Shown here: positions 2,811 through 35,397 of the stretch, piece by piece | Position numbering within the stretch: position 1 is the stretch's first letter | Layout: each line of letters begins with the position of its first letter | Origin: Candidatus Gastranaerophilales bacterium | GTDB lineage: Bacteria; Cyanobacteriota; Vampirovibrionia; Gastranaerophilales; Gastranaerophilaceae | Reading direction: 5' to 3' | DNA length: 64,000 nucleotides | Assembly: GCA_910587815.1 (NCBI GenBank) | Contig: CAJUNK010000013.1 | Coordinates: 11,481 to 75,480 of the forward strand | Position numbers and translations under genes: made by a program | Notes under the pieces: model-generated | Seen by the model: only the letters and a program-made list of their open reading frames with translations | Database searches by the model: none | Told to the model about the DNA's origin: nothing

Positions 2811-2815
2811 GTTTT
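2811..2815. repeat. target-site duplication GTTTT (left copy)
   Basis: Identical pentamer immediately outside both prophage termini (2811-2815 and 34199-34203). Confidence 0.8.
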
Positions 2816-2872
2816 TGTAACGCGTCAGGAGGTTTGAGAAAAAAGTTGCAGGGAGTTTGAGAATTTTTTCAA
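2816..2872. repeat. late-end terminal inverted repeat with two adjacent end repeats (putative transposase-binding sites)
   Basis: TGTAACGCGTCA-GGAGGTTTGAGAA (2828-2840) and GGGAGTTTGAGAATTTTTT (2851-2869). A weaker third copy, AGTTTGAAGTTTTTTT, is at 2935-2950. Confidence 0.7.
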
Positions 2873-2951
2873 TTTCAAATTATTTATTTGCCTGGTTAGT
2901 ATATATTTTGTATATCAAATTATTTTTTAATTAAAGTTTGAAGTTTTTTTG

Positions 2952-2988
2952 AAAATAAAAGGCAAAAACCTTTATTTGGCTTTTGCCT
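2952..2988 (-). terminator. rho-independent terminator after the methylase gene
   Basis: On the minus strand: AGGCAAAAGCC-loop-GGTTTTTGCCT (one mismatch) followed by TTTTATTTT. Confidence 0.6.
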
Positions 2989-3007
2989 AAACATCAACAC
3001 AAAAAAA

Positions 3008-3760
3008 CTAATAATTCTTAATTAAAAGTTCCTTGTATTCTCTGCCTTTCGGGCAACAACCATTTATTCCCTTAAGCCTTGAAACCTCAATAATATAAAA
3101 GCCCTTATAAAGCTTTCTGATTGATTCTGAATCATCATAAGATAACAAGAATTTTCCTTTAATATTCTTTAGTGTTTCAGCCAGTTTTTCATGTTCAAAG
3201 TCCTTTGTAGAGCAAACCTCGTAACCTTCGCCCTTTGAATATGGTGGGTCAAGATAAAAGAAATTTTGTCCGTTATCATAGGTTTGAATTAAATCAAGAG
3301 CATTCTTATTCTCTATATTAACCTTATCAAGCCTTTTTGAAATCTCCATAACTCTCTCTATTATGCCCCCTGCAGATTTAACTCTGACAGCATATGTTGT
3401 TCCTTTTGCACCAAAAGAATAATTAATAACATACAAAAACTGTGCAGCTTTTTGAATATCCGTAATGCCATCAAAGTTAAGCTGTTGTTCAAATTGTGTT
3501 CTGCTTGATAACATATAGCACATTTGACGTGCTAATTCACACGGATGATACTTAACGACGTTGAAAAGGTTTACAAGCCTGTTATCAAGGTCGTTATAGA
3601 TTTCTAATTCCGCCCATCGTTCTTTATAAAATAATACCCAGCCCCCGCCACCAAAGGGTTCAATATATCCTTCAATATCTTTAGGGATTAATTCAGCGAT
3701 TTTCTTTCTTAAAAGACGTTTCCCGCCAATCCAAGAAATTAAATATTTATATTTATTCAT
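3008..3760 (-). CDS. N6-adenine DNA methyltransferase, D12/Dam class
   Basis: N-terminal WIGGKRLL and EPFGGGG (AdoMet binding) plus DPPY catalytic motif (FFYLDPPYSKGEGY). Last gene before the phage end, the position mom occupies in Mu. Confidence 0.85.
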   Translation of the reverse strand: MNKYKYLISWIGGKRLLRKKIAELIPKDIEGYIEPFGGGGWVLFYKERWAELEIYNDLDNRLVNLFNVVKYHPCELARQMCYMLSSRTQFEQQLNFDGITDIQKAAQFLYVINYSFGAKGTTYAVRVKSAGGIIERVMEISKRLDKVNIENKNALDLIQTYDNGQNFFYLDPPYSKGEGYEVCSTKDFEHEKLAETLKNIKGKFLLSYDDSESIRKLYKGFYIIEVSRLKGINGCCPKGREYKELLIKNY

Positions 3761-3784
3761 AATTCAGCTACCTTTCTTAATTTT

Positions 3785-3793
3785 TGATATGAT
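3785..3793 (+). promoter_or_regulatory. candidate extended -10 promoter element TGaTATGAT
   Basis: TG-n-TATGAT read directly. It would start a + strand transcript near 3800, exactly where the GC-rich island begins. No good -35. Confidence 0.3.
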
Positions 3794-3800
3794 TTTTATG

Positions 3801-3970
3801 TGGGGAGCGGATTTTGGCGGGGCGTGGCAGGCGAAGCCGAACGCTATCTGTGAACAGCCTGTTGAAGGCTGTGAACCCGCAATAATCCAAGACGGCTATG
3901 GTACTATAGCTATTCCCATAGTAGTTGCCGCTGTTATGGGAACTTGGGGCGAAAGCCCCTTGCCTGCTTC
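3801..3970 (+). ncRNA. candidate structured RNA (GC-rich, hairpin-dense island); strand tentative
   Basis: 38/60 G+C in 3801-3860 inside AT-rich DNA. Hairpins: ACAGCC-7-GGCTGT (3854-3872), GCTAT-6-ATAGC (3895-3910), CCCATA-14-TATGGG (3915-3940), GGGGC-GAAA-GCCCC (3946-3959; GNRA loop only on the + strand). The 89-aa track ORF here has no RBS and an implausible composition. Confidence 0.35.
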
Positions 3971-4068
3971 ACTTTTAAGTATCAATGAATGCAAATACAG
4001 CACAGTATATATATTCAATTTTCAATGTTCAATAAAAAGTAATTTAAACCCGCATTAATTGATGTTTA

Positions 4069-4089
4069 AAACCCTGTTAATACGGGTTT
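4069..4089. terminator. bidirectional terminator-like hairpin AAACCC-9 nt-GGGTTT
   Basis: A second AAACCC at 4046-4051 can pair with the same GGGTTT. U-rich sequence follows on both strands. Confidence 0.3.
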
Positions 4090-4140
4090 GATTATTAAAT
4101 TGTTAAATATCAAATATGATAAATGTCAATATGCAATGAA

Positions 4141-4305
4141 TTATCGTTTAGCTGATATCAAACATTCAGTGAAGAATATGAGTATAATTCCATTTATACC
4201 TCCAATACAAAGTGCAATATTTGATTGGGTAAAACAAAATACAAATATTGCAATTATGCAGAATAGAAAATTAATGGAATAACATATCCAAAAACTTTTA
4301 TTCAT
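4141..4305 (-). CDS. 54-aa two-helix hydrophobic protein (holin/lysis accessory, or type I toxin-like)
   Basis: Below the track's apparent size limit (smallest listed ORF is 60 aa). ATG 4305-4303 sits 10 nt after the amidase stop, preceded by AAAGGA. Translation: MNKSFWICYSINFLFCIIAIFVFCFTQSNIALCIGGINGIILIFFTECLISAKR. Confidence 0.5.
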   Translation of the reverse strand: MNKSFWICYSINFLFCIIAIFVFCFTQSNIALCIGGINGIILIFFTECLISAKR

Positions 4306-4315
4306 TCCTTTTCAC

Positions 4316-4852
4316 CTATAACCTTTCTAAATACCACTGCACCTTCCCTCGGATATAATCCCCCACTCCATGGGCTGCAAGGTTTGGTTCATATGGAATA
4401 AAATTAATATCAGGCTTTCCTTTTGATTCTGTCTTTGGATTTTGTATACCAAATTCATAATGAGTTAATACAGTTATTGGAGATATTACTATTGCATATT
4501 TTTTACATAGTTCAGCACATAGTTTAAACATTTTTTCAAACTGAATCTTTTGTAATGGGTATTTACCTTGATTGGATGGAGATTTAAAACCTGCATTACC
4601 ACATAAGGCTATACCTATACTTCCTGTATTACCTCCTCCTGTATGTGCTGCATATTTACCATCATAACAGTTTAGATTATCTTCGGGTTTACAGATTCCA
4701 TTTTTGACATTAGCTGCTCTGTGCTGCTTATCATACTCTATCAGATAGTGATAATGTGCTTTTTCACCTTCATTTGGGGTGTATGTGCCAGCCGTCCAAT
4801 GCAGTATTATTCTTTTCATTTTTCTTAAAGTCCTTTCTGTGCTTTTATCCAA
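4316..4852 (-). CDS. endolysin, N-acetylmuramoyl-L-alanine amidase (Amidase_2/PGRP type)
   Basis: ILHWTAG...AHYHYLIEYD...AAHTGGGNTGSIGIALCGN resembles T7-lysozyme-type zinc amidases. Confidence 0.8.
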   Translation of the reverse strand: MDKSTERTLRKMKRIILHWTAGTYTPNEGEKAHYHYLIEYDKQHRAANVKNGICKPEDNLNCYDGKYAAHTGGGNTGSIGIALCGNAGFKSPSNQGKYPLQKIQFEKMFKLCAELCKKYAIVISPITVLTHYEFGIQNPKTESKGKPDINFIPYEPNLAAHGVGDYIRGKVQWYLERL

Positions 4853-5132
4853 TGTTTGGCATTACATAATTTTTATTTATTCTGTAATCAGCACATTTTT
4901 CTATGGCTTTTTCAATAAGCCCATCTGCAAGCTTTATAAGGCTTTCGCGAAAGAATGGAATCAATGGTTTTAGATAAATTGGAAGCTTTGATAGTAAAAA
5001 ATCTATAGCCATTTCCTTTTTTACGGCGCCTGTACCCTCACCTAATAAATCTTCAGCATACCTTATTGCTTTCTGTACTAAGTTTTTAAAACATTGATTT
5101 GCTTTTTTGATAATAATTTCTTTAAATTTCAT
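4845..5132 (-). CDS. small helical protein upstream of the endolysin (LL-H-holin-like region, no clear TM)
   Basis: EGTGAVKKEMAIDFLLSKLP resembles the conserved soluble part of LL-H-family holins. Overlaps the amidase start by 8 nt. Confidence 0.4.
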   Translation of the reverse strand: MKFKEIIIKKANQCFKNLVQKAIRYAEDLLGEGTGAVKKEMAIDFLLSKLPIYLKPLIPFFRESLIKLADGLIEKAIEKCADYRINKNYVMPNIG

Positions 5133-5172
5133 ACTTCTTAAATCCTTTCTATTTTTATATTAAAATTAAGTT

Positions 5173-5364
5173 ATGTTGGAAGTTTTTAAATACGGCAAAA
5201 AAGTTGATATACCTTGTTTTATATGTGATGCACCCGCTAATTTTGATATTCATATAACATCGCATAATGGCGCGTTTACAAACATTAATATTTGTGGAGA
5301 ATGCCTTAAAAAGCTAAAACAAGAATTTGAAAACTTTGAAATCCCGGCAAAGATTAAACTTTAA
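5173..5364 (+). CDS. possible zinc-ribbon protein (CxxC-22-CxxC), opposite strand to the late operon
   Basis: 63-aa ORF filling an otherwise 228-nt gap: CFICDAPANFDIHITSHNGAFTNINICGEC. No convincing RBS. Confidence 0.35.
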   Translation: MLEVFKYGKKVDIPCFICDAPANFDIHITSHNGAFTNINICGECLKKLKQEFENFEIPAKIKL

Positions 5365-5759
5365 AACAGTATTTCATCATCAATTAATACCTGTAATTCT
5401 TCTCTTAAAACCGCGGCTTTGTTTTCATAATCCATCAGTTTTTCGATATCTTCGGGGTTTGGCGGCTCTTCATTTAAAATGCAAAGAGAAATTGCTCTTG
5501 AACTTCTTTGGCTTTGTTTATCTATCTCATCAAGCTGTACTCTAATTTCAGCTATTCTTGCTTCTCTTCTTTTCTGCTCTTTTTCGTCTTCTGTTTTCAT
5601 AGGGCATTTATCTGTCAGATACCAATTGCCATCTATATCAGATTGTTTAACATCTACTTTCTTCATCCTCTTTGACATATAGAATCTTTTATTATTTCCC
5701 ATACTAACCCCATGGCATAATCCTGTATCTTTATCTATTGTTTGAACGTATTTAAGCAT
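5361..5759 (-). CDS. tail-fibre-assembly-like protein (second copy, divergent N-terminus)
   Basis: C-terminal RIAEIRVQLDEIDKQ...YENKAAVLREELQVL parallels RIAEIKLELETIDKQ...YNNKAKGLREELKTL in the 199-aa protein. Confidence 0.55.
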   Translation of the reverse strand: MLKYVQTIDKDTGLCHGVSMGNNKRFYMSKRMKKVDVKQSDIDGNWYLTDKCPMKTEDEKEQKRREARIAEIRVQLDEIDKQSQRSSRAISLCILNEEPPNPEDIEKLMDYENKAAVLREELQVLIDDEILF

Positions 5760-5875
5760 AATTATTAATTAATCCTTTCTAATTCCTGCTTAGTTTTTCT
5801 TTTACTATTCCTGCTTTTATTTTTATTACTGTTTCTATTTATCTCTAATGCTCTAGTGTTATTGCTCCCTTTTAT

Positions 5876-6346
5876 TTATTCTTTTCTTTCTTCACTCACC
5901 CTCCCCATCAACGGATAACACACTTCACTTACACTTGAACAATCATAGGTTATCTTTATTGCTTCATTAGGTTTAATATAAATTGGTGTATGTCCTTTTT
6001 CTCCATAGTTAGTTCCAATATTAAAAACCAATTCATTATTGATAAATACATTACATCCTTTTGAGCCACTCTGTACTAAATTCCAAACAGGTGACACATA
6101 CATTAGATAATAATCATCCGATATGAATTCTAATCCTTTATCTATCCCTGCACTGTAATCTGGCATCAACCAGTTTATTATCCTTTCCTTATCATCCTTA
6201 ATTAAAGAATTATCCTTAATATCAGATAGTTCCTTGTCAAGAACAGTGTAGTTATATGGATTAGTATATGGGTTTTTATTTGTTGATGTATTTGTTGTTG
6301 TATTTGATATTTCATTATTAACTTCATTATTTATTTCATTGCTCAT
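5876..6346 (-). CDS. N/T-rich protein in the second fibre cassette (possible receptor-binding or adhesin module)
   Basis: ORF with a likely start at MSNEINNE (ATG 6346) overlapping the upstream stop. Low-complexity N-terminus followed by a cysteine-containing globular part. Confidence 0.5.
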   Translation of the reverse strand: MSNEINNEVNNEISNTTTNTSTNKNPYTNPYNYTVLDKELSDIKDNSLIKDDKERIINWLMPDYSAGIDKGLEFISDDYYLMYVSPVWNLVQSGSKGCNVFINNELVFNIGTNYGEKGHTPIYIKPNEAIKITYDCSSVSEVCYPLMGRVSEERKE

Positions 6347-6935
6347 TATTACCCACCTCACTATCTAATGTTTTTAACTCCTCCCTTAATCCTTTGGCTT
6401 TATTATTGTAATATTCAAGCCAGCTTTCATTTGTTGTTTTATCCTTAATTTCAGGCTCAGTAATGGCTCTAATCTTTTGTTTGTCTATTGTTTCAAGTTC
6501 AAGCTTAATTTCAGCTATTCTTTGCTGGTTTTGGGTTTCAAGCTTCTCTTGTTCAATTTCAGCCTTGCTTTTTTTCAAAACTTTTCCATTCCCGATTTTA
6601 AAATTAGATGGATTTTGCTTTATTAATTCTGCAAGTTCATTTGGAACAACAAAACCATCCTGAATTTTACCGATTTTTTTAATATCTCGGATATTAAAAT
6701 CTGTGGTTAGAAGCTTAAAGTCTTTACGATAATCAGGTTCTATTTTCCATTTATTGTTTTTAATATCAAAAATGAGAACCTCGTTTTCCTTTATTTTAGG
6801 TGGTTCAACGATTGTTGCATTGGCTGGGATTAACGGAACAAATCTGCCCTTAAGTTTTGTTTCTTCGGGGTTGCATTCTGCCATTGTTGAATATGTAAAT
6901 TCTTTTGTATCTTTATCAAAATGATATATGCGCAT
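6336..6935 (-). CDS. tail fibre assembly protein (chaperone)
   Basis: MRIYHFDKDTKEFTYSTMAECNPEE...PLIPANATIVEPP...WKIEPDYR is the typical Caudovirales tail-fibre-assembly N-terminal pattern. Directly downstream of the fibre gene. Confidence 0.7.
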   Translation of the reverse strand: MRIYHFDKDTKEFTYSTMAECNPEETKLKGRFVPLIPANATIVEPPKIKENEVLIFDIKNNKWKIEPDYRKDFKLLTTDFNIRDIKKIGKIQDGFVVPNELAELIKQNPSNFKIGNGKVLKKSKAEIEQEKLETQNQQRIAEIKLELETIDKQKIRAITEPEIKDKTTNESWLEYYNNKAKGLREELKTLDSEVGNNEQ

Positions 6936-6974
6936 ATTCTTTAATTCTCCTTATTTGTTATTTATTTTTATTAT

Positions 6975-8648
6975 TTACTTATACCTAGTTTTAACCCTCA
7001 CCTTTATTGAAGGGGGTTGAACGGTTGAAGAATTGTCATAGATTGGGTTACAGTTACTTGCATCAAAATATGCCCTGTAACATGCACCCCCGCCTCCTGA
7101 AACATTTGCATGGCTGCCATCCAATGTTTTTAGAAAGGCACCGGTTAAATAATCAGCCCTTGAACCATAAGTTTGGTTAAGCGTACCTGTAATATTTGGC
7201 AACCCTGCCTCAATATATCCAAAATCAGATGCACCCCATATTGTTTTATTTCTAAAATCAGGCAATACAAAATCATCAGAATTTTCAGGGGTTCCATAGG
7301 TATCACCATAAACTTCATATAATGTTGAGTATGTAGTTTTAGATATTTGCGCCCCTTCAAGCCATATTTCATTATCATTTAGGGTGTTTGACAAAGTAAT
7401 AATTGGCATACCTATTTCAAACCCTACATCTGGTGAACTGCTTTGGGATAAATTATACGAATTTGTCACTAATTTACCCCCCCCGATTGGTGCGGTTTCA
7501 GAATTTTCATCTCCTTCGGCGAGTGTGGCAGACACAGTATAAACCCCTGCCTCTACCTCATCTGTTATTTGCCAAGCTAAACCTGGGTCATCTTCTAATG
7601 TTGCACCATATTCTTCTAAACAATAAGTACAATATGGTGCAACAGATAAATCTTGCCATAAATCATATAGGTTAGGGTCTTTAGGCGGGTTCTTCTGTCT
7701 GTAAGTTTTACCACCCTCAACATCAAAGAATACAATTTCACCATTTCTGTTTGCAACCCTTAAACTATATTCCCCAGGTTCATAATCAGTTACATCCAAT
7801 GTTAAATCTTCTGTGATTGTAACAGTTTTCCCGTTTCCATCTGTATATATGGCAGGTGCTTTCAGGGTGATTATTCTTTTTGAAATTGTTACAGGTTCTT
7901 CATCTTCAGCTCCTGGGGAACTATCGTTCCACGCCGCCTGCGTAGTGCTTGTGCCATCCTCATCGGATGTCACCGCACCGGCTCCGCTTTCTTCAGACGG
8001 CACAGTTTCCGTCACTGTACTTAATTGAAGCAGTGCTGCATTCCCGTTTTCATCCACTGCACCGGAATTAAAGCAAAAGGGAACAAAGGTTGATGGTAAA
8101 TGTTCTAACGGCACCTTAGCTTCATCATCCAAAGGCGCATATCCGCCTGCCTTGCCTTTTTCTTCAAGTAGCTGATACTCTTCCAATACCTGCCTTGTAA
8201 CCAAATTGCCTGAATCATCAATTATAATTGTGTTTATAATCATATCAGACAATTCAATTTGAATTTCAATATTCAAAGTTTTATTGCTTGAGCTATCCGC
8301 CTTGGTTTTGAAGGTTTCAGGATACTTTGCAACCGCCCAAAGTTTACCTTCAGGACTGAAAAGCCCTACTTCCCTTATAGTGTAATCCCCTTCGCTTGGC
8401 GGAATTTGAAAACAAAAATATAAGTAACCTGAAGCATTACCCTTTGGCGGTTTTTTACCTTGTGCAAAGATATTACCTTCGTATTTCTGGTTTTTTAAAG
8501 CGGTCTGGGTTTTTTCGGGCTCATAATAATTGCCGTTACTATCGCCCACCGCCATTTTAGCAGGTTCAAAACTCCGGTTATTTGCAACGCAATCTAAGAC
8601 TTCAATCATACCTTCTGTGGTTAATACTGCATAAAATTGTTCTGTCAT
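6975..8648 (-). CDS. tail fibre protein
   Basis: N-terminus FYAVLTTEGMIEVLD...MAVGDSNGNYYEPEKTQTALKNQKY matches the P2 gpH / Mu S conserved N-domain. C-terminal VLPDFRNKTIWG is a tail-collar-like motif. Confidence 0.85.
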   Translation of the reverse strand: MTEQFYAVLTTEGMIEVLDCVANNRSFEPAKMAVGDSNGNYYEPEKTQTALKNQKYEGNIFAQGKKPPKGNASGYLYFCFQIPPSEGDYTIREVGLFSPEGKLWAVAKYPETFKTKADSSSNKTLNIEIQIELSDMIINTIIIDDSGNLVTRQVLEEYQLLEEKGKAGGYAPLDDEAKVPLEHLPSTFVPFCFNSGAVDENGNAALLQLSTVTETVPSEESGAGAVTSDEDGTSTTQAAWNDSSPGAEDEEPVTISKRIITLKAPAIYTDGNGKTVTITEDLTLDVTDYEPGEYSLRVANRNGEIVFFDVEGGKTYRQKNPPKDPNLYDLWQDLSVAPYCTYCLEEYGATLEDDPGLAWQITDEVEAGVYTVSATLAEGDENSETAPIGGGKLVTNSYNLSQSSSPDVGFEIGMPIITLSNTLNDNEIWLEGAQISKTTYSTLYEVYGDTYGTPENSDDFVLPDFRNKTIWGASDFGYIEAGLPNITGTLNQTYGSRADYLTGAFLKTLDGSHANVSGGGGACYRAYFDASNCNPIYDNSSTVQPPSIKVRVKTRYK

Positions 8649-9202
8649 ATTTGCACTTCCTTTGTCTTTATAACAGTGGTTTCAAGGGTTGAAACCCTTG
8701 CACCGATATAAACTTTTGCCTTTGAACATAAAAAATAATTAATTACATCTAAAATCCTGGTTAAAGGCTTATAATTGTTAATCATTTCTTTAATTTCAGC
8801 CTCAAAGTTATCATCTAACCCCCGATCATAAATATTTAGAAATTCCACCCTAAAATGCCCGATACGTCCGTCATATTCGTCCCATTCTTTGATATCAGCT
8901 TCAATGTTTAAAGTCTGCAAAGCTTTTTTAAGTGCCGGGATACTGCCTTTTTCTGCGTGCAGCTGAGGTGAATTTTTGATTAAATTTTGTTTTTGTTCCT
9001 TTGTTTTTGCTAAATTCCATCCTTCATATCCCATAATATGGTTTTCCTTGCCCAAAATTGGAAGCAAGGTTTCGTTGACATTTTCAACCGGGCAAAGTAA
9101 AAGTTTTTTAAGGTCAATTTTAAAAGCCTCTTTCATACAACTTTCAAGAGCTAAATTATGCTTATCCTGCAACACTTGAGGCAGCAATGAATTATTACTC
9201 AT
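8645..9202 (-). CDS. baseplate/tail protein (P2 gpI-like)
   Basis: N-terminal SLLPQVLQDKHNLALE resembles the gpI LLP signature. Position between gpJ-like and fibre genes. Confidence 0.65.
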   Translation of the reverse strand: MSNNSLLPQVLQDKHNLALESCMKEAFKIDLKKLLLCPVENVNETLLPILGKENHIMGYEGWNLAKTKEQKQNLIKNSPQLHAEKGSIPALKKALQTLNIEADIKEWDEYDGRIGHFRVEFLNIYDRGLDDNFEAEIKEMINNYKPLTRILDVINYFLCSKAKVYIGARVSTLETTVIKTKEVQI

Positions 9203-10226
9203 CTGTCACCCTTTCATAAGTTATATTGCCGATTGTACCCTTATATGCCGTATCAATTTTAGCCAGCATGTTTGAAGTCGGCTTTGTAACTTTAAAATCA
9301 AAAACGCCGTCAATAGAATTTATGTAAGACACTATATGATTTTTAACAACGGATTTTTTTAAAAACAGATTAACACCGCTTAAATACTTATTTAAAAGCT
9401 CATTAACATTCTTTTTAACAGTTTCTTCATCCGCATTTTTTCTAAGATAAACTTTGCCGTTTATTGCAAATTCTTCAATCTTTGCAAACTGTGGCAATGG
9501 GTAATCACAAAGCGGCTTAACGGGTTTTAAGGCATCTGAAACTTTATCCAAAAGCCCTTCAACTTCTGTGCCATCTTGCGTTAAAATATGCAAAAATGTT
9601 CTATATGGGTGCGGCACGGTGACTTTAATCTTTGAACCCGCTTCAAGCGCCTGATTTAAAGTGATTTCAACCTCACCCTCTTTATAATTGCAAACGATAT
9701 TAAAGAGAGCCGTTGTTATTTCATTCGTTGTCATAACGGTTTCAGTTTCACCGATTTTAATTTTTATATCATCTTCAGGCACTTCGCACTGCACATCTTT
9801 AATTAAAGAATCAACAGATTTTGTGAAATAAATATATGCAAGCTCAGGACCCGCAACGGAAAACCCTTCAGGGGATAATAAAATCCTTTGAATATAGTCT
9901 TTATCTTCCTCGTCTTCAAGGCGCGGACAGTTTTTTTGATTGCCTAAAAAGTCTAGAATTGGTGCCCTTGAGTGTTCTACAAGGTTAAGTTTACAAGCAT
10001 CATTAACTTGGGCTTTAACAAGGTTTGCATAATAAACCATTAACTCAATTAAAATCCTTGTATCATGGGCAATCTGCACCTTTGTATCGGTGTCTTTTTC
10101 AAACTTTTCAATTAAATGTGCCTCATCTGCTTTTGGGTCAATTTTTATAAATTCAAGGGCTGCGTGAGCCGGTGTGAAAGGGGAAGGTGTTGAGCCTTGC
10201 CCTGAAACACTACGTTCTGACATCAT
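9195..10226 (-). CDS. baseplate J-like protein (Mu gp47 / P2 gpJ)
   Basis: Size and position between the gpW-like and gpI-like genes. Confidence 0.7.
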   Translation of the reverse strand: MMSERSVSGQGSTPSPFTPAHAALEFIKIDPKADEAHLIEKFEKDTDTKVQIAHDTRILIELMVYYANLVKAQVNDACKLNLVEHSRAPILDFLGNQKNCPRLEDEEDKDYIQRILLSPEGFSVAGPELAYIYFTKSVDSLIKDVQCEVPEDDIKIKIGETETVMTTNEITTALFNIVCNYKEGEVEITLNQALEAGSKIKVTVPHPYRTFLHILTQDGTEVEGLLDKVSDALKPVKPLCDYPLPQFAKIEEFAINGKVYLRKNADEETVKKNVNELLNKYLSGVNLFLKKSVVKNHIVSYINSIDGVFDFKVTKPTSNMLAKIDTAYKGTIGNITYERVTDE

Positions 10227-10564
10227 TATACGTAAACCTCCACAAAATCACTGTTTTCATCTTCTTTGCAGGTAAAATAAATTGTCATTTTTATTTGTCC
10301 ATCTTCTGTGAAATCACCAACAACCTCGGAAATTTCGCATCTTGGCTCTTGAAGCGAAATTTCCCGTGTGTAAACTCCTATTAGATAATCAATTGCAAGG
10401 GGAGATTTTTCACCAACAGCTGGAAATAAATCACATCCAAATTCGGGCATGAAAGGGACAGAACCCTTTTGAGTTGATGCAATGGTTTTAACACATTGTT
10501 TAACATCTTCTTTGCCCGAAACGGTTTCAGTGAGCGAATTTCTTTTGTGTTGATAACTTTCCAT
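10226..10564 (-). CDS. baseplate wedge protein (GPW / T4 gp25-like)
   Basis: 112 aa. QKGSVPFMPEFGCDL is the typical gp25/GPW motif. Confidence 0.75.
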   Translation of the reverse strand: MESYQHKRNSLTETVSGKEDVKQCVKTIASTQKGSVPFMPEFGCDLFPAVGEKSPLAIDYLIGVYTREISLQEPRCEISEVVGDFTEDGQIKMTIYFTCKEDENSDFVEVYV

Positions 10565-10622
10565 ATTCCTATTATTTAATTTTCAAAATTTTATTTCATA
10601 TAAGGAACTTATTAAGTTTCTA

Positions 10623-27485: not shown

Positions 27486-28030
27486 TACCTGATTTCTATA
27501 TCTGAAACCTTCCAAATATTACCTTCTTTTTCAAATGTCCTAATATAACAAGGTTTGTCATTATCGCTGCAAAAACTTTGCTTGATTTTATTCTTTGATA
27601 TCTTTTCAACTTTTAATGTTTTAGCGCTAATGGGTTTATCGGTAAATGTAAGATAGAAAATTTTAAGTTTAGAAGTTTTTGCCACCTTCTCATCTCTTGT
27701 TTCGTATTCTTTAATTAGTTCTTTTTTATATGTTAATGGCAAAGTTTCCTTCAAGTTTGCAAGTAAATTAGCTTTTGCAGCAATTAAAAACGGGTTGCCT
27801 TCATCATCCATTTCACTGTCAGCTCTCATCAAAGCATATTCAACCATTTTATTAATATTATGAAATTCAAGTGCAGTTTTAGAATCAAGATTTTTATTTG
27901 CCATTGTAAGCATATAAGCAGAATATCTCGGTGATGTTCTAAAATCTATATATAGAATGAAAATTGCAATAATAAAAAATAAACCAATTCCTACCGATAT
28001 AAATAAAGTAATTTTCACACCTTTATTCAT
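27485..28030 (-). CDS. membrane-anchored protein co-transcribed with the repressor (lysogeny-expressed accessory gene)
   Basis: 181 aa with an N-terminal TM helix (ITLFISVGIGLFFIIAIFILYI). Starts 14 nt after the repressor stop, with an AAAGG RBS. Confidence 0.6.
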   Translation of the reverse strand: MNKGVKITLFISVGIGLFFIIAIFILYIDFRTSPRYSAYMLTMANKNLDSKTALEFHNINKMVEYALMRADSEMDDEGNPFLIAAKANLLANLKETLPLTYKKELIKEYETRDEKVAKTSKLKIFYLTFTDKPISAKTLKVEKISKNKIKQSFCSDNDKPCYIRTFEKEGNIWKVSDIEIR

Positions 28031-28044
28031 TTTGTAACCTTTCT

Positions 28045-28704
28045 TTATAAACCTCTGCTTAAATTTTTAATTACTCTGCCTTTTATATTAACTACGGTGC
28101 CACTATCATATTTAATAATTTCTGTTTCATATTTATTATTGTCTGAAATTATTTCAAGGTTACCATCAAACCTCAATCGTAATCTTTTTATAAACCAATC
28201 GCCAAACTTTTCAATGACAAAGACGCCACCGTTATTAAAATTACAATCTCCAAAATTTACAAGTACATCATCACCGCTAAATATTGTAGGCTCCATGCTA
28301 TCACCCGTTGCCGTAAAAACTTTTAGATTACTATGATTCCCGACCCTAAATATATTTTGAATTAATTTTTTGCCAAGGGTAATTGGTGTAACCTCCGCTT
28401 CATCTAAAACAACAGTACCAATGCCGCAACTTGGAGTTATGTGCACACGCTCGAGAGTGATACAATCTTCATCCTTGTTGCTAAAGGGGGTGCCTTCGCC
28501 TGTTAAAAGCCATTTGAAATCAACATTGTAATATTTAGAAATTTCTAATGCTAAAGATGACGATATTGATTTCACTTTTCCAGAGCGAATTTCGGAAAAT
28601 TTAGAAGGACTAACCTTTAAGGACTTAGCAAATTCGTATTCTGAGATTCCAGGTTTAACCTGATTGTTTTCAAGTATATATGCTATTCTTTCGATTAGTT
28701 CCAT
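28045..28704 (-). CDS. prophage repressor, HTH-XRE plus S24 (LexA/CI-like) autopeptidase domain
   Basis: N-terminal HTH (EYEFAKSLKVSPSKFSEIRSGK), GDSMEPTI serine motif and downstream FIKRL lysine. Confidence 0.85.
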   Translation of the reverse strand: MELIERIAYILENNQVKPGISEYEFAKSLKVSPSKFSEIRSGKVKSISSSLALEISKYYNVDFKWLLTGEGTPFSNKDEDCITLERVHITPSCGIGTVVLDEAEVTPITLGKKLIQNIFRVGNHSNLKVFTATGDSMEPTIFSGDDVLVNFGDCNFNNGGVFVIEKFGDWFIKRLRLRFDGNLEIISDNNKYETEIIKYDSGTVVNIKGRVIKNLSRGL

Positions 28705-28723
28705 TTTTCTGGCTATTTATGTA

Positions 28724-28762
28724 TAAATTTCTATTGACATTATATAGAAATTTCTATATAAT
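28724..28762 (+). promoter_or_regulatory. early promoter (TTGACA-17 nt-TATAAT) with an embedded 20-bp palindromic operator
   Basis: TTGACA 28734-28739, TATAAT 28757-28762. Perfect palindrome TATATAGAAATTTCTATATA at 28741-28760. An extra half-site, AAATTTCTAT, is at 28725-28734. Confidence 0.65.
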
Positions 28763-28804
28763 TATTTCATAAGTTTAATTTTTAACTTGTTTAAAGGTAA
28801 AAAA

Positions 28805-29017
28805 ATGGTAACACAAACAAAAATTAAATCCGACAGAAACTTAAAAAATATTAAGCGGGCCTATGAAATTAAATATCGCTTAAAAATTGCCGGTCTTACA
28901 CAAAGAGACATTAAAAAAGCTTTGAATATTTCTGATACTGCCGTATATAGGGCAATTTTCGGATTATCAAAAATAAGCCGGGTCGATAGATGGCTTAAAG
29001 AAAATTTGGGGGTGTAG
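28805..29017 (+). CDS. Ner/Cro-like small DNA-binding protein
   Basis: 70 aa from ATG 28805 (AAGG RBS). HTH: GLTQRDIKKALNISDTAVYRAI. First gene of the early operon, divergent from the repressor. Confidence 0.6.
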   Translation: MVTQTKIKSDRNLKNIKRAYEIKYRLKIAGLTQRDIKKALNISDTAVYRAIFGLSKISRVDRWLKENLGV

Positions 29018-29018
29018 A

Positions 29019-29162
29019 ATGACGGAAATTTTTTGTTATTTTTTAAGCCTATATTTGCTTTGGGGTTTTTCACTTAAATTTAAATCTTTTGCATTAGTTA
29101 TAATTGCAGGATTCTTTTATTTTTATTTTACAGAAGCAATTTTGGAGATTTTCTTTAAATAA
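29019..29162 (+). CDS. 47-aa hydrophobic peptide translationally coupled to the transposase
   Basis: Below the track's apparent size limit. MTEIFCYFLSLYLLWGFSLKFKSFALVIIAGFFYFYFTEAILEIFFK. The ATG is 1 nt after the ner-like stop, and the stop overlaps the transposase start (TAATG). Confidence 0.4.
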   Translation: MTEIFCYFLSLYLLWGFSLKFKSFALVIIAGFFYFYFTEAILEIFFK

Positions 29163-31096
29163 TGATTCAGAATGTTTCAAAAACTTCATATTTAAGTATA
29201 AAAGAAATTGCTGAATTTACGGGAGTTTCTACAGAAACTTTAAAAAAGCGCTGCCAAAGGAGTCGTTACACGTATAAGCTTTCACAAAACAAACTTGGGG
29301 GCGGTAAGTCCGGGCAGAAATACGAAATTCTTGTTTCATCTTTAGAAAAAGAACTTCAAGAAAAAATTTACTCTACGGATACTAAATATGGTGATAGGCA
29401 GGAGGGCTTATCTTGTCTTCCTGCATTTTCTTTAAATCAAGAAGCTGTAATCCCTGATTCAGCTAAAAAAATTGCTCTTGCAAAAGTGGATGTTCTTTCG
29501 CTTTGGCAGGATTATAGAATTAATTATAGTAACAAAAAACAAGCTGATAATGATTTTGTTATGGGGTTTAATTCAGGAATTATTTCAAACCCTTTGTTTA
29601 ATATCTTGGACAAGGTTTCAAAAGGCAGCCTTTACAGGTGGCAAAAAACATTGTCTGAAAACAACGGTGATTATACTGCATTAATTAATAACTATAATTA
29701 TAAAGGTGAATCTATCTTAACAAATTCTCTAACGGATGAAGAAAAGCTTGCCTTTATTAATATATATTATAACGATGCCAAATTTAATTTAAAAAGCGCA
29801 TATAATATTTTAAAATTTCAGTTTGAAAAAGACGGTAAAGCAGTAAAATCAGAGGCTACATATAGGCGCTTTATAAACTTTATACAAAAAAATCATAATG
29901 ATGTCCATATTTTAGCGAGAGACGGAGAAAAGAAGCTTAAAGACACTGTAGCTCCTTATTTAAGGCGTGATTTATCTTCTATAGGTGTAGGTGATGCGCT
30001 TGTAGCTGATGGTAACAAACTTGATTTTCAGGTGTTAAATCCTTTTACCGGGAAACCCTGCCGTGCTATATGGATTGTATTTTATGATTGGATTTCAAAG
30101 GATGTTGCCGGTTCTGAAATTATGCTTACAGAGAATACACAAGCAATATCTTCAGCTTTAAGGAATGCTATTTTAAGACTTGGGAAAATTCCAAAGTATG
30201 TGTACTTGGATAACGGCGGGGCCTTCAAGAGCCAATATTTTACCGGTGTTAAAAACTTTAAAGAAACCGGACTTCAAGGTGTTTATCAAAATCTTGGCAT
30301 TACGGTTAAATTTGCCCAACCCTATAATGGCAGGGCCAAAGTTGTTGAAAGATTTTTCGGTGAATTTGTAAAATCCTGTCCACCGGCAGTTTCATCGTAT
30401 ATTGGGAATTCTATTGAAAATCGTCCGGCACATTTGAGGCGTAATGAGGAATTTCATAAAAATCTGCATCAAAATGATAAAATTCCAACCATTGAACAAG
30501 CAAAAATGATTATCGAATCCTGGCTTGAATATTATCGTACCCGTCCTTGTAAACACGTTAAAGGTAGAACTATAGGCGAAGCTTTTAATGATGCCCGGGG
30601 TACCGGTGTGGATATCGACATGCTTGATGAATTAATGATGTCGTCTGAAATTAGAACCGCCCGCCGCAATACTATACGGATGTTCAACCAGGAATATGAA
30701 ACAACTGCTTTGTATGGCAAAACCGGTAAATTTGTTGTTAAATACAGCCTTTTTGATATTTCAAAAATTAAAATTTATTCCCTTAAAGGCGAGTATATAG
30801 GGGAAGCTAAAACCGTTGTTCCTGTTAACGCACTTGCAAGAGAAACGGGCAGTACGTTTGATATTTATACATATAGGCGCAAATTAAAAGAACAAAAGGC
30901 GCTTATTGATTCAACTAAAAAGAAAACAAAAGCTTTAATAAATGCTTCAAATCCTATTAATGCGTTTAATTCTATTGAATGGGCGCAGGAAAAAACCGTG
31001 CCCATAAAAAATAGACAATCAAAACGCAAACTTGAAATAACTATATATGAAGATTTGCACAAAGTGCAAATTGAAAAGAGAAGGATAGAAATGTGA
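29162..31096 (+). CDS. Mu-type DDE transposase (MuA-like)
   Basis: 644 aa. N-terminal HTH (LSIKEIAEFTGVSTETLKKR) and an rve-type core (VADGNKLD...YLDNGGAFKS...KVVERFFGEF). Confidence 0.9.
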   Translation: MIQNVSKTSYLSIKEIAEFTGVSTETLKKRCQRSRYTYKLSQNKLGGGKSGQKYEILVSSLEKELQEKIYSTDTKYGDRQEGLSCLPAFSLNQEAVIPDSAKKIALAKVDVLSLWQDYRINYSNKKQADNDFVMGFNSGIISNPLFNILDKVSKGSLYRWQKTLSENNGDYTALINNYNYKGESILTNSLTDEEKLAFINIYYNDAKFNLKSAYNILKFQFEKDGKAVKSEATYRRFINFIQKNHNDVHILARDGEKKLKDTVAPYLRRDLSSIGVGDALVADGNKLDFQVLNPFTGKPCRAIWIVFYDWISKDVAGSEIMLTENTQAISSALRNAILRLGKIPKYVYLDNGGAFKSQYFTGVKNFKETGLQGVYQNLGITVKFAQPYNGRAKVVERFFGEFVKSCPPAVSSYIGNSIENRPAHLRRNEEFHKNLHQNDKIPTIEQAKMIIESWLEYYRTRPCKHVKGRTIGEAFNDARGTGVDIDMLDELMMSSEIRTARRNTIRMFNQEYETTALYGKTGKFVVKYSLFDISKIKIYSLKGEYIGEAKTVVPVNALARETGSTFDIYTYRRKLKEQKALIDSTKKKTKALINASNPINAFNSIEWAQEKTVPIKNRQSKRKLEITIYEDLHKVQIEKRRIEM

Positions 31097-31103
31097 GGTT
31101 AAA

Positions 31104-32033
31104 ATGACAGAATTAATGGAAGTAAAATTTAACAAAGAAATTCAAAACAGTATTAAACAGCTAATTGATGAAAAGAAACTCAATCTTTCAACTATTGCAA
31201 AAGGCGTAAACAAATCCCCATCAACCCTTAGTTTGTATATTTCAGGAAAATACACTGGGGATGTGGTGGCACTTGAGGATGATTTAAAAAATTATTTAAG
31301 CCTGTTTAGTAAAAAAGAAAATACCGAAAACAAAACCCTTGATTTTGTCGAAACAACGATTGCAAAAAGACTGTTCCATGCTGCAAATATGTGTCAACTA
31401 AAGGGTAAAATGGGTGTATGTTATGGAACTCCGGGAATTGGTAAAACAACAGCTATCAACGAATACAAAAAAACATCTTCAGGTGTTATTGTGGTCGACC
31501 CTTTTGAACAGTCAAGTGCCAGAGAAGTTTTAAAACAAATAGCAAATCACCTCAAATTAAGTTACTTAAATAATACAAGCCTCGATGAATTTACTTCAAA
31601 CGTAATTAAAAAGCTTGAAAAGAACAAGTACATAATCATTATTGATGAGGCTGAAAACCTGAAAATAGAGGTTTTTAAAACCATTAGAAAAATTCACGAC
31701 AGAACAAAAAATAATTGTGGTGTTTTATTTGTTGGTACAGATGAATTACGCGCACTTTTGCAAAAGGTACAAAGTGGATTTCCATATATTTCAAGCCGAA
31801 TAGGGTATCTTGAGAAACTTGATGCGCTTAAAATGAACGACATTGAAAAACTTGTGCATCAATATTTTCCATCTTGTAACGATAGGTTAGTTCAATATAT
31901 TGCCATATCAACAAATTATAATGCCCGTTCAATTCAGAACCTGTTAGACCTTTGTTTTGATTTTGTAAAATCCGAAAACATTGAACTTGATATCGATGTA
32001 ATTGATGCTGCAAGGGAGAAGCTTTTAATATGA
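31104..32033 (+). CDS. MuB-like AAA+ ATPase, transposition target-capture protein
   Basis: N-terminal HTH, Walker A GTPGIGKT, Walker B IIIIDEAE. Confidence 0.85.
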   Translation: MTELMEVKFNKEIQNSIKQLIDEKKLNLSTIAKGVNKSPSTLSLYISGKYTGDVVALEDDLKNYLSLFSKKENTENKTLDFVETTIAKRLFHAANMCQLKGKMGVCYGTPGIGKTTAINEYKKTSSGVIVVDPFEQSSAREVLKQIANHLKLSYLNNTSLDEFTSNVIKKLEKNKYIIIIDEAENLKIEVFKTIRKIHDRTKNNCGVLFVGTDELRALLQKVQSGFPYISSRIGYLEKLDALKMNDIEKLVHQYFPSCNDRLVQYIAISTNYNARSIQNLLDLCFDFVKSENIELDIDVIDAAREKLLI

Positions 32034-32494
32034 TGAAAAGCACGCCAAAACAACGTCAATTTATAGGTTTTCTAAGGAAACAGTTAAATATAGATACTGA
32101 AACATATTTAGATATTTTGCAAAGCTATGGTGTAGATTCTAGCAAAGATTTAACCAGGGGCCAAGCTGAAGAATTACTCCAAAGCCTCAAATGCAAAGCT
32201 GCAGAAATTGGAGCATATAAGTCAAAAACAGGCAGCCACTACACTAAATACAATAACATGTCTGGCAGATACGGAATGGGAACACCGGCACAACTTCGAA
32301 AAATCGATGCTATGTGGAAAAATATTTCAAATCAGCCTACAGATACAGCTAAGGAAAAGGCTTTAAATTCATTCATAGAAAGAATTACAGGCAAAAAAAG
32401 ATTAAGCTTTTTAACTCAAAATGAAATAAGCAAGGTTATAAAAGCTATTCAGGTTATGGAACAAAATCAGAAGGAGAAGATTAAAAATGGCTAA
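32030..32494 (+). CDS. GemA / Mu gp16-like protein (DUF1018)
   Basis: KQRQFIGFLRKQLNIDTETYLDILQ...LTRGQAEELLQSL...PAQLRKIDAMW follows the DUF1018 pattern. Confidence 0.7.
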   Translation: MMKSTPKQRQFIGFLRKQLNIDTETYLDILQSYGVDSSKDLTRGQAEELLQSLKCKAAEIGAYKSKTGSHYTKYNNMSGRYGMGTPAQLRKIDAMWKNISNQPTDTAKEKALNSFIERITGKKRLSFLTQNEISKVIKAIQVMEQNQKEKIKNG

Positions 32495-32981
32495 GAAAAA
32501 GGAAAGTGTATTAAAGTCATGGGATGAAGTGGATAAATCACTTAAAAAACTAGGTGAGCTGGAAATTCAAAAAACCAAGTTGGATGGTGAATTAACCATA
32601 AAAATTAATGAATTGAAGGAAGAATATTCAACCAAAGGTGTTGCTATAAAGAAAGAAGCCGAGGATATCAAAAAAGAAATTAGCCGTTTTTGTGAACAGA
32701 ATAAGGATTCCTTTGTCAACAAACGAAACAAAAAGCTTAATTTTGGAACCTTGTCATACAAAATAACAAAAAAAGTCCTTTGCCCCTGTGTTGCAACTGT
32801 TATTAAGGCAATAAAGGCGCTTAATTTAGACTTTTGTTTAAGAATTAAGGAAGAAATCGAAAAAGATAAGTTAAAGGAACTGGATGCAAACACTTTAACA
32901 AAAATCGGTGTATCAATAATCAAGGAAGACAAGCTTTCAATCGAGCCCAATATGGCAGAAATTGCGGCATTAATCAGCTAG
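32487..32981 (+). CDS. host-nuclease inhibitor Gam-like protein
   Basis: SWDEVDKSLKKLGELEIQKTKLDGELTIKINELKEEY is the Mu Gam family N-terminal pattern. Confidence 0.7.
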   Translation: MAKKKESVLKSWDEVDKSLKKLGELEIQKTKLDGELTIKINELKEEYSTKGVAIKKEAEDIKKEISRFCEQNKDSFVNKRNKKLNFGTLSYKITKKVLCPCVATVIKAIKALNLDFCLRIKEEIEKDKLKELDANTLTKIGVSIIKEDKLSIEPNMAEIAALIS

Positions 32982-32989
32982 GAGGGAAA

Positions 32990-33358
32990 ATGACAATAAT
33001 TAAATGTGGAGGTATTGAAGTCGACACCGAAAAGCTAACTGTAGATGATATGCCAACAGAAGTTTTTAGAGAAATTTTTGAATTATGTGGCGTAAATGTC
33101 GCTATGGAATTGCTTCTTAATATGCCTGGTAATATCATTCAGGTTCCTGCTCGCGGTTTGGCTAACATAGAAAAGAGACTTATACTACAGGCATTTGAAA
33201 AATTTCCACCAACCACAGCTTTAATACGGCGTCTTTGCAGGGATTTTAAAACAAGTGAATGGTATATAAGGGACCTTTTGGTGCAAAACAAAAAGCAAGT
33301 ACCCTGCGATGGGCAAGGACACTTGGATTTTATAAATAGTGAAGGAGAAGTACAGTGA
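32990..33358 (+). CDS. Mor-family transcriptional activator
   Basis: FREIFELCGVNVAMELLLNMPGNIIQVPA is Mor-like, with a C-terminal HTH. Confidence 0.65.
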   Translation: MTIIKCGGIEVDTEKLTVDDMPTEVFREIFELCGVNVAMELLLNMPGNIIQVPARGLANIEKRLILQAFEKFPPTTALIRRLCRDFKTSEWYIRDLLVQNKKQVPCDGQGHLDFINSEGEVQ

Positions 33359-33621
33359 TAATATTTGGAATTATTTTATTAATCCTATTAATTGCAACAT
33401 TAAAATATCTAAATTATACAAATAAACTTGTGAAAAACATGGGTTATTATGTATTTTGCCCGCAAGGCAGAGAGCCAAGGGTTGTCCATTGGTCTTTTGA
33501 AACTGCCTACAGGGAAGCTGTAAGATTACATTTTAAACATCCATATAACGATTTTTTAATTTTAAAAATTGAACACTTGATACGCAAACAAAATATCAAT
33601 GATGACGAAATTCCATTTTAA
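33355..33621 (+). CDS. small membrane-anchored protein, last early gene
   Basis: 88 aa, GTG start overlapping the Mor stop, N-terminal TM helix. Confidence 0.45.
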   Translation: MIIFGIILLILLIATLKYLNYTNKLVKNMGYYVFCPQGREPRVVHWSFETAYREAVRLHFKHPYNDFLILKIEHLIRKQNINDDEIPF

Positions 33622-33642
33622 AACCTAAATACCTTTTAACTT

Positions 33643-33680
33643 AAGACGGATGATAAAATCGGATTCCGTCTTTTCTTTTT
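33643..33680 (+). terminator. rho-independent terminator of the early operon
   Basis: AAGACGGA-14 nt-TCCGTCTT followed by TTCTTTTT. Confidence 0.6.
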
Positions 33681-34104
33681 AGTTTAATAAACAATTTGTT
33701 GTGTATTTTGATATATAAAGTATATATTTTTAAGAATGAATTTTGTCCCTCACCTGTCCCCCACCACCTTTTATTTTTGTTTTGAATTTAATAAAATTAT
33801 CTTTGAAAATTGTGTAGAAAATAACTTAGTTTTTACTTTTTTTAAAAAATTAAAACCTATTTTAAAATTCTTTTAAAAGTTTTTAAATTGCATATTTCGG
33901 ACATAAATTCTAAGGAAAATTTAAAACTTTTTTAAAATCTTTTTAAAAAGTTCTTAAAAATTTAAAACATTGATTTTTAAGAAAAATGCATATTTCCCAA
34001 CTTGTCCCCCAGTATTTTTAATTATTTTTGTAAAAATCTTGAAAATCCCTGTAAATATTGAGTAAAAACCCTGTAATTTTTCTGTAAAAAAATGGTAAAA
34101 ACTG

Positions 34105-34198
34105 AAAAAATTCTCAAACCTCAAAACACCCCTAAAACTCCTATTGTATAAGCAATTTACCCCATTTTAAAAATTCTCAAACTTCCAGTCTCTTCACA
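34105..34198. repeat. early-end terminal inverted repeat with spaced end repeats
   Basis: AAAAAATTCTCAAACCTC (34105-34122) and AAAAATTCTCAAACTTCC-AGTCTCTTCACA (34169-34198). These are the reverse complements of the late-end repeats. Confidence 0.7.
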
Positions 34199-35397
34199 GT
34201 TTTATAGATTCTATATCGTTTTCTGAAATATTTGCGGTATTTTGGTATGCAGCATAATGTTTTTAGTAAAAAATATATTAGCTGTTTATATTTTATATTT
34301 TTAATTTTTGGATATATAAACTTAACTATAAGTTGATTTAGCTTGTCTGTATCGACATCATCTTTTATATAACTGTATTTTTGCTTATCTGAATAAGCAG
34401 ATAGCCAATTTACTATAAAATCAAAATAATATTTTCTGTAATTTATTTTTTTATCTGGCAATTTGAATTCTAATTTATTAAATAATTTACGTAAATCATT
34501 AGTTGTTGTGATTAAAAACGGGCCGACTGTGTGTAATACAGGCAGCGGATTGACATTAGCATTGATTGTGTATAATATAGTATCTTTCTTTTTGAAATAT
34601 TCTTCTTGCTGTAAATTGCGTCCACTTCTTTCTAGTTGAATTATCGTTGCATTGTTTTTGCAGAATACTGCATTTAATGGCAAGGTTCCATTTAATGCTG
34701 CCATATATGTGCAATTTTTATAATAAGAAATTTGTTCTTCTAAAGACATTTTTTCCGGGTGCAGTATTTTAAAATCATTAAGTTTAAAGATTTTCTCTAA
34801 TTCTTCTTCGTTAATACTGGAATCATTAAAGTTTGTGCGCGATAAATATATTTTTTTTGTATTTTTAGCTTGAACTTTATTTGCTACATATTCAAATGGA
34901 TATAAATATTCGTTTTTTACAATATATTTTAAGTACATTGCAGACATTTCAGGAATTATAACTTCTTTAAATTGAGTATGTTTATTTATGTAAATTATAT
35001 TCTTCTTATCAATGTCTAAAAGATTAAAAAAATCTACCATATATTGTGCTGGTTTATTAAGAATTGAAAAAGCTATTTTATAGTCTTGTGGATTATTTTT
35101 TAAATAATAATATAGTCTGGTTGTTCCTTCTAGGATAAAATGTCCATAATGTGACATTAACCAGCCACCGTATATCACTGTTTCATTTATAAATGGCATA
35201 TTTGATGGTATATTTGGGTTTCTAATTGAAAAGTCGTTGTTATCAAAACTTGTTCTTGTGTATGAAATATCTATAATTTTTCCGTCATGTGTACAGACGC
35301 AAGAATTTGAGATATTGTTTTCGTGCATTTCTGGTAAAATAATTCCATTCTGAATGCTTATAGAAGTTAAAGTATCTTTTTGATATTCAAAGGTCAT
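34177..35397 (-). CDS. GT61/DUF563-type glycosyltransferase, C-terminus replaced by phage-end sequence
   Basis: YGGWLMSHYGHFILEGTTRLYY is a DUF563 motif. The last 6 codons plus stop (VKRLEV*) lie inside the prophage terminal repeat (34197-34177). Confidence 0.75.
   Translation of the reverse strand: MTFEYQKDTLTSISIQNGIILPEMHENNISNSCVCTHDGKIIDISYTRTSFDNNDFSIRNPNIPSNMPFINETVIYGGWLMSHYGHFILEGTTRLYYYLKNNPQDYKIAFSILNKPAQYMVDFFNLLDIDKKNIIYINKHTQFKEVIIPEMSAMYLKYIVKNEYLYPFEYVANKVQAKNTKKIYLSRTNFNDSSINEEELEKIFKLNDFKILHPEKMSLEEQISYYKNCTYMAALNGTLPLNAVFCKNNATIIQLERSGRNLQQEEYFKKKDTILYTINANVNPLPVLHTVGPFLITTTNDLRKLFNKLEFKLPDKKINYRKYYFDFIVNWLSAYSDKQKYSYIKDDVDTDKLNQLIVKFIYPKIKNIKYKQLIYFLLKTLCCIPKYRKYFRKRYRIYKTVKRLEV
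34199..34203. repeat. target-site duplication GTTTT (right copy)
   Basis: Identical to 2811-2815. Confidence 0.8.

Follow-up and report, generated by a model that had tools for sequence, protein, structure and literature searches.

A Mu-like transposable prophage with ends defined to the base in a surface-polysaccharide gene of a Gastranaerophilales-type gut bacterium

The stretch of DNA analyzed here (the window; 64,000 nucleotides of contig CAJUNK010000013.1, assembly GCA_910587815.1) contains an element of 31,383 bp at positions 2816 to 34198. Its tips read 5'-TG...CA-3', and the pentamer GTTTT stands on either side, at 2811 to 2815 on the left and at 34199 to 34203 on the right. The left junction reads ...acagtGTTTT followed by TGTAACGCGTCAGGAGGTTTGAGAA (breakpoint between 2815 and 2816), and the right junction reads TTCTCAAACTTCCAGTCTCTTCACA followed by GTTTTatag (breakpoint between 34198 and 34199). 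Read inward, the inverted tips agree at 19 of their first 25 positions. The right end lies in a host gene for a GT61-family glycosyltransferase (34177 to 35397, minus strand; PF04577), which is cut by the insertion. We are highly confident that the element is a complete temperate myovirus that would use Mu-type DDE transposition for integration as well as replication, and that it was recently inserted into the 3' end of this surface-polysaccharide gene in a Gastranaerophilales-type gut bacterium. The Gastranaerophilales are uncultured, non-photosynthetic relatives of cyanobacteria that live in animal guts. The phage adds a divergent new member to a well-known kind, and what is new is its host rather than its mechanism.

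We located empty-site alleles by looking up contigs that encode exactly both flanking host proteins. The unoccupied site is present in six independent assemblies of the same species (Logan SRR23863902, SRR23863894, SRR27445795, SRR23863896 and SRR23863899, and NCBI GCA_948918365.1), in all of which the GT61 gene directly adjoins a hexapeptide-transferase gene. Aligned to the window, these alleles run down to 34199 and resume at 2815, with an overlap of five bases. Every empty junction reads ...ggtatacagt GTTTT atagattc..., with 2815 joined to 34204 and a single GTTTT in place of the two copies. The flanks are 99 to 100% identical to those of the window: One side is 100% identical over up to 7.8 kb, and the sole difference on the other is the length of a dinucleotide repeat. 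Because all six empty alleles carry one GTTTT each, both breakpoints and the 5-bp target duplication are proven, and the ends are established to the base. An earlier note on this DNA had read the element as a Mu-like transposable prophage, and the junction letters, GTTTT flanks, TG/CA tips and 19-of-25 inverted match all read as it claimed. Its own test for refutation was run, and the reading came through: The breakpoints in the six assemblies fit 2815/34199 exactly, and related prophages do not extend past these ends, as copies 96.6 to 99.5% identical stop at the same terminal bases.

The source genome is a metagenome-assembled draft of 33 contigs, which might suggest that the contig joins a free phage genome to host DNA by mis-assembly. 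We consider this extremely improbable. The occupied allele also occurs in an independent assembly (Logan SRR10593851), which has the same left junction and is identical to the window over 3.9 kb. Furthermore, the window flanks are adjacent in the six other assemblies and share exactly the pentamer that is duplicated here, which a chimera would not give. Searches elsewhere for the empty site at the DNA level returned only spurious 40-bp matches in 12 other species of the genus, because the intergenic DNA is too diverged, and did not find it in the related genome G013 (described below). Exact patterns gave no matches in JGI metagenome contigs, either for a 24-mer of the empty site or for the left end, and the exact left-end pattern gave none in IMG/VR.

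The interrupted GT61 gene is part of a surface-polysaccharide cluster. It has lost its last ~45 codons and now ends in a few phage-encoded residues, such that its product has 406 aa in the lysogen versus 441 to 465 aa in the empty alleles. An exact sequence look-up of the truncated 406-aa glycosyltransferase found it not on record. The 3' tail of the gene also holds a (TC)n tract (window 2676 to 2691) whose length differs among assemblies. Its variants correspond to GT61 products of 441, 443, 450 (reconstructed) and 465 aa, and once to a downstream gene of 180 rather than 175 aa. As part of a surface-glycan operon, the tract may serve for phase variation.

Genes were assigned on the open reading frame (ORF) map of the window with Pfam and PHROGs searches. 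The early operon (28787 to 33621, plus strand) reads outward to the right end and comprises a small helix-turn-helix (HTH) gene in the position of Ner, followed by MuA, MuB, GemA, Gam, a Mor-like gene and orf88. A non-coding stretch of 577 bp lies between orf88 and the right end. The MuA transposase (29162 to 31096; 644 aa) matches PF09299 (E = 3e-11) and phrog_310 (E = 5e-87). A PDB search with the single MuA sequence (phmmer) gave no match; however, a profile built from this transposase plus five relatives does find the Mu transpososome structure 4FCY (E = 1.5e-15). The same profile also matches TnsB of type V-K CRISPR-associated transposons. Residues D283, D350 and E396, in GDG, DN.G and ER motifs, align with the DDE residues of MuA and are invariant across the six homologues. 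The adjacent MuB-like AAA+ ATPase (31104 to 32033; 309 aa) matches AAA_22 (E = 2.5e-21), TniB and the 'DNA transposition protein' family phrog_296 (E = 1.4e-56), and GemA and Gam match PF06252 and PF07352. The matches of the small HTH protein (HTH_3, E = 1.3e-3) and of the Mor-like protein (32990 to 33358; phrog_836, E = 4.4e-6; pairwise E = 2e-5 to a Pfam-Mor protein) are weak. On the opposite strand lie an S24 (LexA/CI-type) repressor with an HTH (28045 to 28704; PF00717, E = 3.4e-13), which has the GDSMEP serine, the IKRL lysine and the Cys-Gly pair, and a co-oriented 181-aa gene of unknown function (27485 to 28030). Pfam and PHROGs revealed no integrase or recombinase among the ORFs, and we take none to be present because no ORF of recombinase size is left unassigned. 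PADLOC searches of the variable genes gave no match except a methyltransferase.

The late genes form two divergent units. The protease gene on the minus strand and orf99 on the plus strand are separated by intergenic DNA on the ORF map (20895 to 21082), a putative bidirectional late control region. To its right, the packaging block (21083 to 27367, plus strand; PF17289/PF03237) holds two small ORFs, the small terminase TerS (21630 to 22076), the large terminase TerL (22077 to 23492), a Mu-type portal (23573 to 25081; PF06074, E = 2e-82), MuF (24975 to 26381; PF04233), another small ORF and a Mu G-like morphogenesis protein (26882 to 27367; PF05069). The C-terminal region of MuF is PBECR3-like: Residues 360 to 433 show a weak match to this nuclease family (PF18812, E = 6.8e-5).

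To the left, all genes are on the minus strand. The head block (17583 to 20894; phrog_1005, E = 8.6e-57, and phrog_976, E = 1.4e-50) includes the head maturation protease/scaffold (19914 to 20894), the major head protein (18503 to 19447), Mu gp37-like and gp36-like proteins and a decoration/cement protein (PF09646, PF07030 and PF09956). The Mu-type head morphogenesis set of portal gp29, F, G, gp36 and gp37 is thus present. The block for the contractile tail (PF10145, PF04985 and phrog_23, E = 2.9e-78) consists of the sheath (16154 to 17611), the tube (15617 to 16123), a small gene (15338 to 15601) and the tape measure (13030 to 15036). It is followed by P2-type baseplate and tail completion genes for gpI, gpJ, gpW, a V-like protein, gpD, gpX and gpU (8645 to 13030; PF09684, PF04865, PF04965, PF05954, PF05489, PF06995 and phrog_6142). 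A tail fibre with a Collar domain (6975 to 8648; PF12571, E = 2.5e-29) and a fibre-assembly protein (6336 to 6935; phrog_105) come next, with two unassigned small genes beside them (within 5361 to 8648). Last are a holin-like protein (4845 to 5132; phrog_6918, E = 1.6e-4), an N-acetylmuramoyl-L-alanine amidase endolysin (4316 to 4852; PF01510, E = 9e-14) and, as the final late gene, a Dam-like D12-class N6-adenine DNA methyltransferase (3008 to 3760; PF02086, E = 2e-28; MTase_II/orphan MTase in PADLOC). All of the modules that had been called essential are therefore found by Pfam and PHROGs, the Ner-like protein and Mor through weak matches only. Rfam and tRNA scans of the window found nothing.

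Near-identical copies of the phage exist at other sites. One is in the MAG (metagenome-assembled genome) contig CATJOM010000042.1 of an uncultured Candidatus Melainabacteria (G013), with 96.6 to 99.5% identity over window 19187 to 34198, and another is in an IMG/VR contig, with 98.6 to 99.5% identity over window 25072 to 34198. In both, homology at the right end stops exactly at 34198 and gives way to TTATC... and TCTAA..., respectively. Right-end homology with the sequences L008, L010 and L052 to L055 is lost exactly after ...CTCTTCACA (34198). At the left end, homology of the near-identical copies is lost exactly before TGTAACGCG, and L012 has the same end with another flank. G013 has the identical left end on a separate contig, preceded by ...TTATC, and its right-end flank begins with TTATC, so that this insertion has a 5-bp duplication of its own, read from flanks on two contigs. 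Joined together, these flanks correspond colinearly to one stretch of the window's own genome (G000 contig C3) that has no interruption. This flank homology is among the grounds on which we infer a Gastranaerophilales/Melainabacteria host. The shared ORFs are intact in all three copies, with 96 to 100% protein identity between the window and the two others. An identical repressor protein occurs in 85 blocks of the assembly collection, and among the repressor-bearing contigs that were read these three right-end flanks recur, while one contig breaks off exactly at ...CACA.

Copies that are 96.6 to 99.5% identical thus occupy three insertion sites (GTTTT, TTATC and TCTAA). This bears on the possibility that the element was integrated by a site-specific recombinase or by some other non-transpositional route, with TG/CA and GTTTT forming a short att core. 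A 5-bp repeat and a 19-of-25 inverted repeat could, on their own, arise by chance in DNA of 30% G+C. However, the three target pentamers are unrelated, which excludes a site-specific att core. The element also has no integrase or recombinase gene, and its MuA and MuB homologues are intact. We give this explanation next to no credence.

Transposition is in turn consistent with the sites at the ends of the element. The 9-mer GTTTGAGAA occurs five times in the 64-kb window, versus 0.81 expected from shuffles, and four of the five copies lie no more than 90 bp from the ends and are mutually inverted (2832 and 2855 on the plus strand; 34111 and 34174 on the minus strand). In Mu, transposase sites are spaced beside the early genes (attL) and adjacent at the late end (attR). 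The equivalent of attR here is the late-end terminus (2816 to 2863, plus strand), which starts TGTAAC and has its two cores 23 nt apart, and the equivalent of attL is the early-end terminus (34111 to 34198, minus strand), which ends ...CTCTTCACA and has its two cores 63 nt apart. A sibling phage in G013, here phage Y, has the core GTTTGGCAA at all four homologous positions: TGTAACCCGCCACAGAGTTTGGCAA, 22 nt and GTTTGGCAA at the late end, and TGTAATGGGACTGGAAGTTTGGCAA, 63 nt and GTTTGGCAA at the early end. The four cores have co-varied from GAGAA to GGCAA, with the 16-nt distance to the tip and the spacings retained. A more distant relative, which comes from a rabbit Gastranaerophilales MAG and has a transposase of 56% identity, carries TTCTCAAAC, 60 nt later TTCCTAAAC, and then 16 nt to ...ATTACA, after which host genes begin. 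Since the four cores change together while the geometry is kept, we predict them to be transposase-binding sites, as expected for a phage of this type. The two adjacent late copies and two spaced early copies had been noted before. A weaker third late copy, also proposed, fell away, as its best candidate, in AT-rich DNA, differs at two positions and is no better than chance. The proposed resemblance to Mu holds for this arrangement of end sites and fails for the gene order, which is nearer to that of BcepMu and KS10.

Among strains with flanks that are 100% identical over 5.8 kb, the insertion is present in some and absent from others, and it must therefore be very young relative to strain divergence. 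Because of this polymorphism and the three sites occupied by near-identical copies, recent mobility of the element is well supported by the sequences, and the phage evidently moved recently in mouse-gut populations. It is plausible, as a prediction, that the element is still inducible. Of the suggestion that the insertion is recent and possibly still active, the first part is borne out by the polymorphism, the identical flanks and the three sites.

Correct ends would also be expected of a Mu-like prophage that is now a dead, fixed remnant, unable to transpose or to form particles. In favour of this, the exact variant was seen at one site only, and some relatives in the order have stop codons in their transposase or portal genes. 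Nevertheless, we regard a dead remnant as unlikely. All 41 ORFs are open, and where the copies elsewhere overlap them, the proteins are 96 to 100% identical. The catalytic triad of the transposase and the serine and lysine of the S24 repressor are intact, and the insertion is very young. In addition, one contig (L056; ENA ERZ28571347 scaffold_3165) stops exactly at the phage tip ...CTCTTCACA, which hints at heterogeneous flanks, as expected with several insertion sites or with packaged DNA.

Several observations weigh against the main reading, a complete and recently inserted Mu-type phage. The exact variant, with its Dam and 181-aa genes, is known from a single further sample, where it occupies the same site, and that assembly is possibly not independent of the MAG. 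Two sites per end were found versus three in Mu, with no recognizable third. The ends of phage Y, on separate contigs, are flanked by GCTAC and GCTGG and share no 5-bp sequence, and they may belong to different insertions. Last, the Ner-like and Mor-like assignments are weak.

Given its genes and ends, we propose the following cycle for the complete phage. The MuA-like transposase would bind the four sites containing GTTTGAGAA (an adjacent pair at the late end, a pair with 63-nt spacing at the early end), pair the ends and cut after the terminal CA. The MuB-like AAA+ protein would deliver target DNA, and the ends would be joined to it at staggered positions 5 bp apart. The S24 repressor would hold lysogeny, and DNA damage probably leads to its cleavage. 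The early operon (HTH, A, B, GemA, Gam and Mor-like) would then be transcribed outward to the right end, and the Mor-like activator would switch on the two divergent late units from 20895 to 21082. Headful packaging would take up the genome together with host flanks.

The phage is a mosaic. In a widespread lineage, the 181-aa gene beside the repressor is swapped for an unrelated 127-aa gene (as in L008 and L010, from which the 181-aa gene is absent). In the G013 copy, the Dam-lysis region (window 2816 to 5190) is only 71 to 85% identical, while its first ~190 bp are identical; in phage Y, the Dam-lysis region is 93% identical and lies behind different ends. At the TCTAA site (L053:1-2549, JGI 3300006213; L010/L017, IMG/VR 3300006217), the early end lies in the 3' end of a large Cas9-like gene with HNH_4 and RuvC_III domains. 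This cas9-like ORF extends 42 nt into the phage tip and is thus truncated by the insertion.

Among known phages, the Burkholderia phages BcepMu (Bcepmuvirus, NC_005882) and KS10 offer the closest layout. They are likewise transposable myoviruses with a P2-type tail (gpU, X, D, V, W, J, I and H), and they have the same Mu-type head genes (TerS, TerL, portal gp29, F, G, protease, gp36 and gp37). In the BcepMu record, the early operon (HTH ... transposase, B, GemA, Mor) runs outward to the nearby end, like 27485 to 33621 here, and the repressor and a membrane-protein gene are on the opposite strand, where our phage has the repressor and the 181-aa gene. KS10 is predicted to have only four transposase sites, a pair at each end, and the order of its modules breaks up the head-assembly genes (PMC2628397). 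The late halves differ: In BcepMu, lysis, packaging, head and tail are colinear, whereas here the TerS-G packaging block is inverted relative to the protease-head-tail block, which gives two divergent late units. Unlike in BcepMu and KS10, the lysis genes and Dam come behind the tail fibres at the far end, the repressor is of the S24 type, and the host belongs to another phylum. Burkholderia phages appear only among transposase matches of less than 60% identity, and no close sequence relationship was found.

Escherichia phage Mu (Muvirus) shares the TG...CA ends, the 5-bp duplication, A, B, GemA, Gam, Mor, gp29, F, G, gp36 and gp37, and it too has a DNA-modification gene last at its late end (mom in Mu, Dam here). 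However, the early operon of Mu (c-ner-A-B) runs inward from attL, its late genes are colinear, it has three sites per end, and its repressor is not of the S24 type. With an outward early operon, two divergent late units and two detectable sites per end, the phage in the window departs from the Muvirus layout. The nearest cultured-phage transposases in tblastn searches are only 24 to 27% identical (BalMu-1, phiRTG5, FP_Mushu, Villandry and Mwe-Yong1). Faecalibacterium phage FP_Mushu, Bacillus phage BalMu-1, Fusobacterium phage phiRTG5 and Microcystis phage Mwe-Yong1, the last with a true cyanobacterium as its host, are Mu-like temperate phages of non-proteobacterial hosts. They are without DNA similarity to the phage described here, and their hosts are not Vampirovibrionia/Melainabacteria. 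A literature search found no paper linking Mu-like phages with Gastranaerophilales. As biology, the element would not surprise a specialist in Mu-like phages; the value of this case lies in the completeness of the proof, which is close to the limit of what sequences alone can offer, and in the host range, and not in a new mechanism. It provides a well-characterized example of how Gastranaerophilales genomes are remodeled. A mini-Mu style transposition system for low-G+C hosts would need, at the least, these defined ends together with the A and B genes.

The divergent junction of protease with orf99-TerS-TerL is kept in five relatives (G029:C1:734000-772000, G144:C2, G132:C8, G034:C79 and G151:C12; L038 to L049), in which the downstream blocks are exchanged. 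In G029 and G144, portal-MuF-Dam-G follows the tail tube, and tape measure, baseplate, fibre and lysis genes follow TerL, which looks like an inversion centered on this junction. The early block also varies in orientation, being inward in G132, G034, G029 and G144 and outward in the window and G151.

Mu-type transposition genes are widespread in the order. MuA homologues (E <= 1e-20) are present in 112 of 151 species genomes of Gastranaerophilales, with up to 8 per ~2-Mb genome, and Mu-type portal homologues are present in only 40 of the 151. We tentatively raise a broader reading, which we consider possible but doubtful, in which the phage would be one member of a very large, recombining Mu-type population across the Gastranaerophilales. 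Given the disparity between the two counts, many members would be phage-derived Mu-type transposons, such as the A/B/Mor-like cassette on contig C5 described next, the insertions into cas9-like and surface-glycan genes would be functional, and repeated inversions around one conserved bidirectional late promoter would be tolerated. If true, such insertions would amount to defence knock-out or receptor change and would not be accidents.

The window's own genome carries a second MuA copy (41% identical; G000:C5:76254-88051), together with a Mor-like gene, a TniB/MuB-like ATPase and a 256-aa gene of unknown function. The cassette adjoins AbiH and type I restriction-modification genes, with no phage structural genes nearby, and is perhaps a Mu-type transposon that carries defence genes as cargo. 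As the ends of this element, a 17-bp TG-initiated inverted repeat (71717/94129) was considered and dropped, since no duplication accompanies it and its two copies look like similar ends of genes. Elsewhere in the genome, four homologues of the phage amidase (56 to 76% identical) are found on contigs C12, C15, C18 and C20, one of them beside a holin-like gene; these may mark other prophages or host autolysins.

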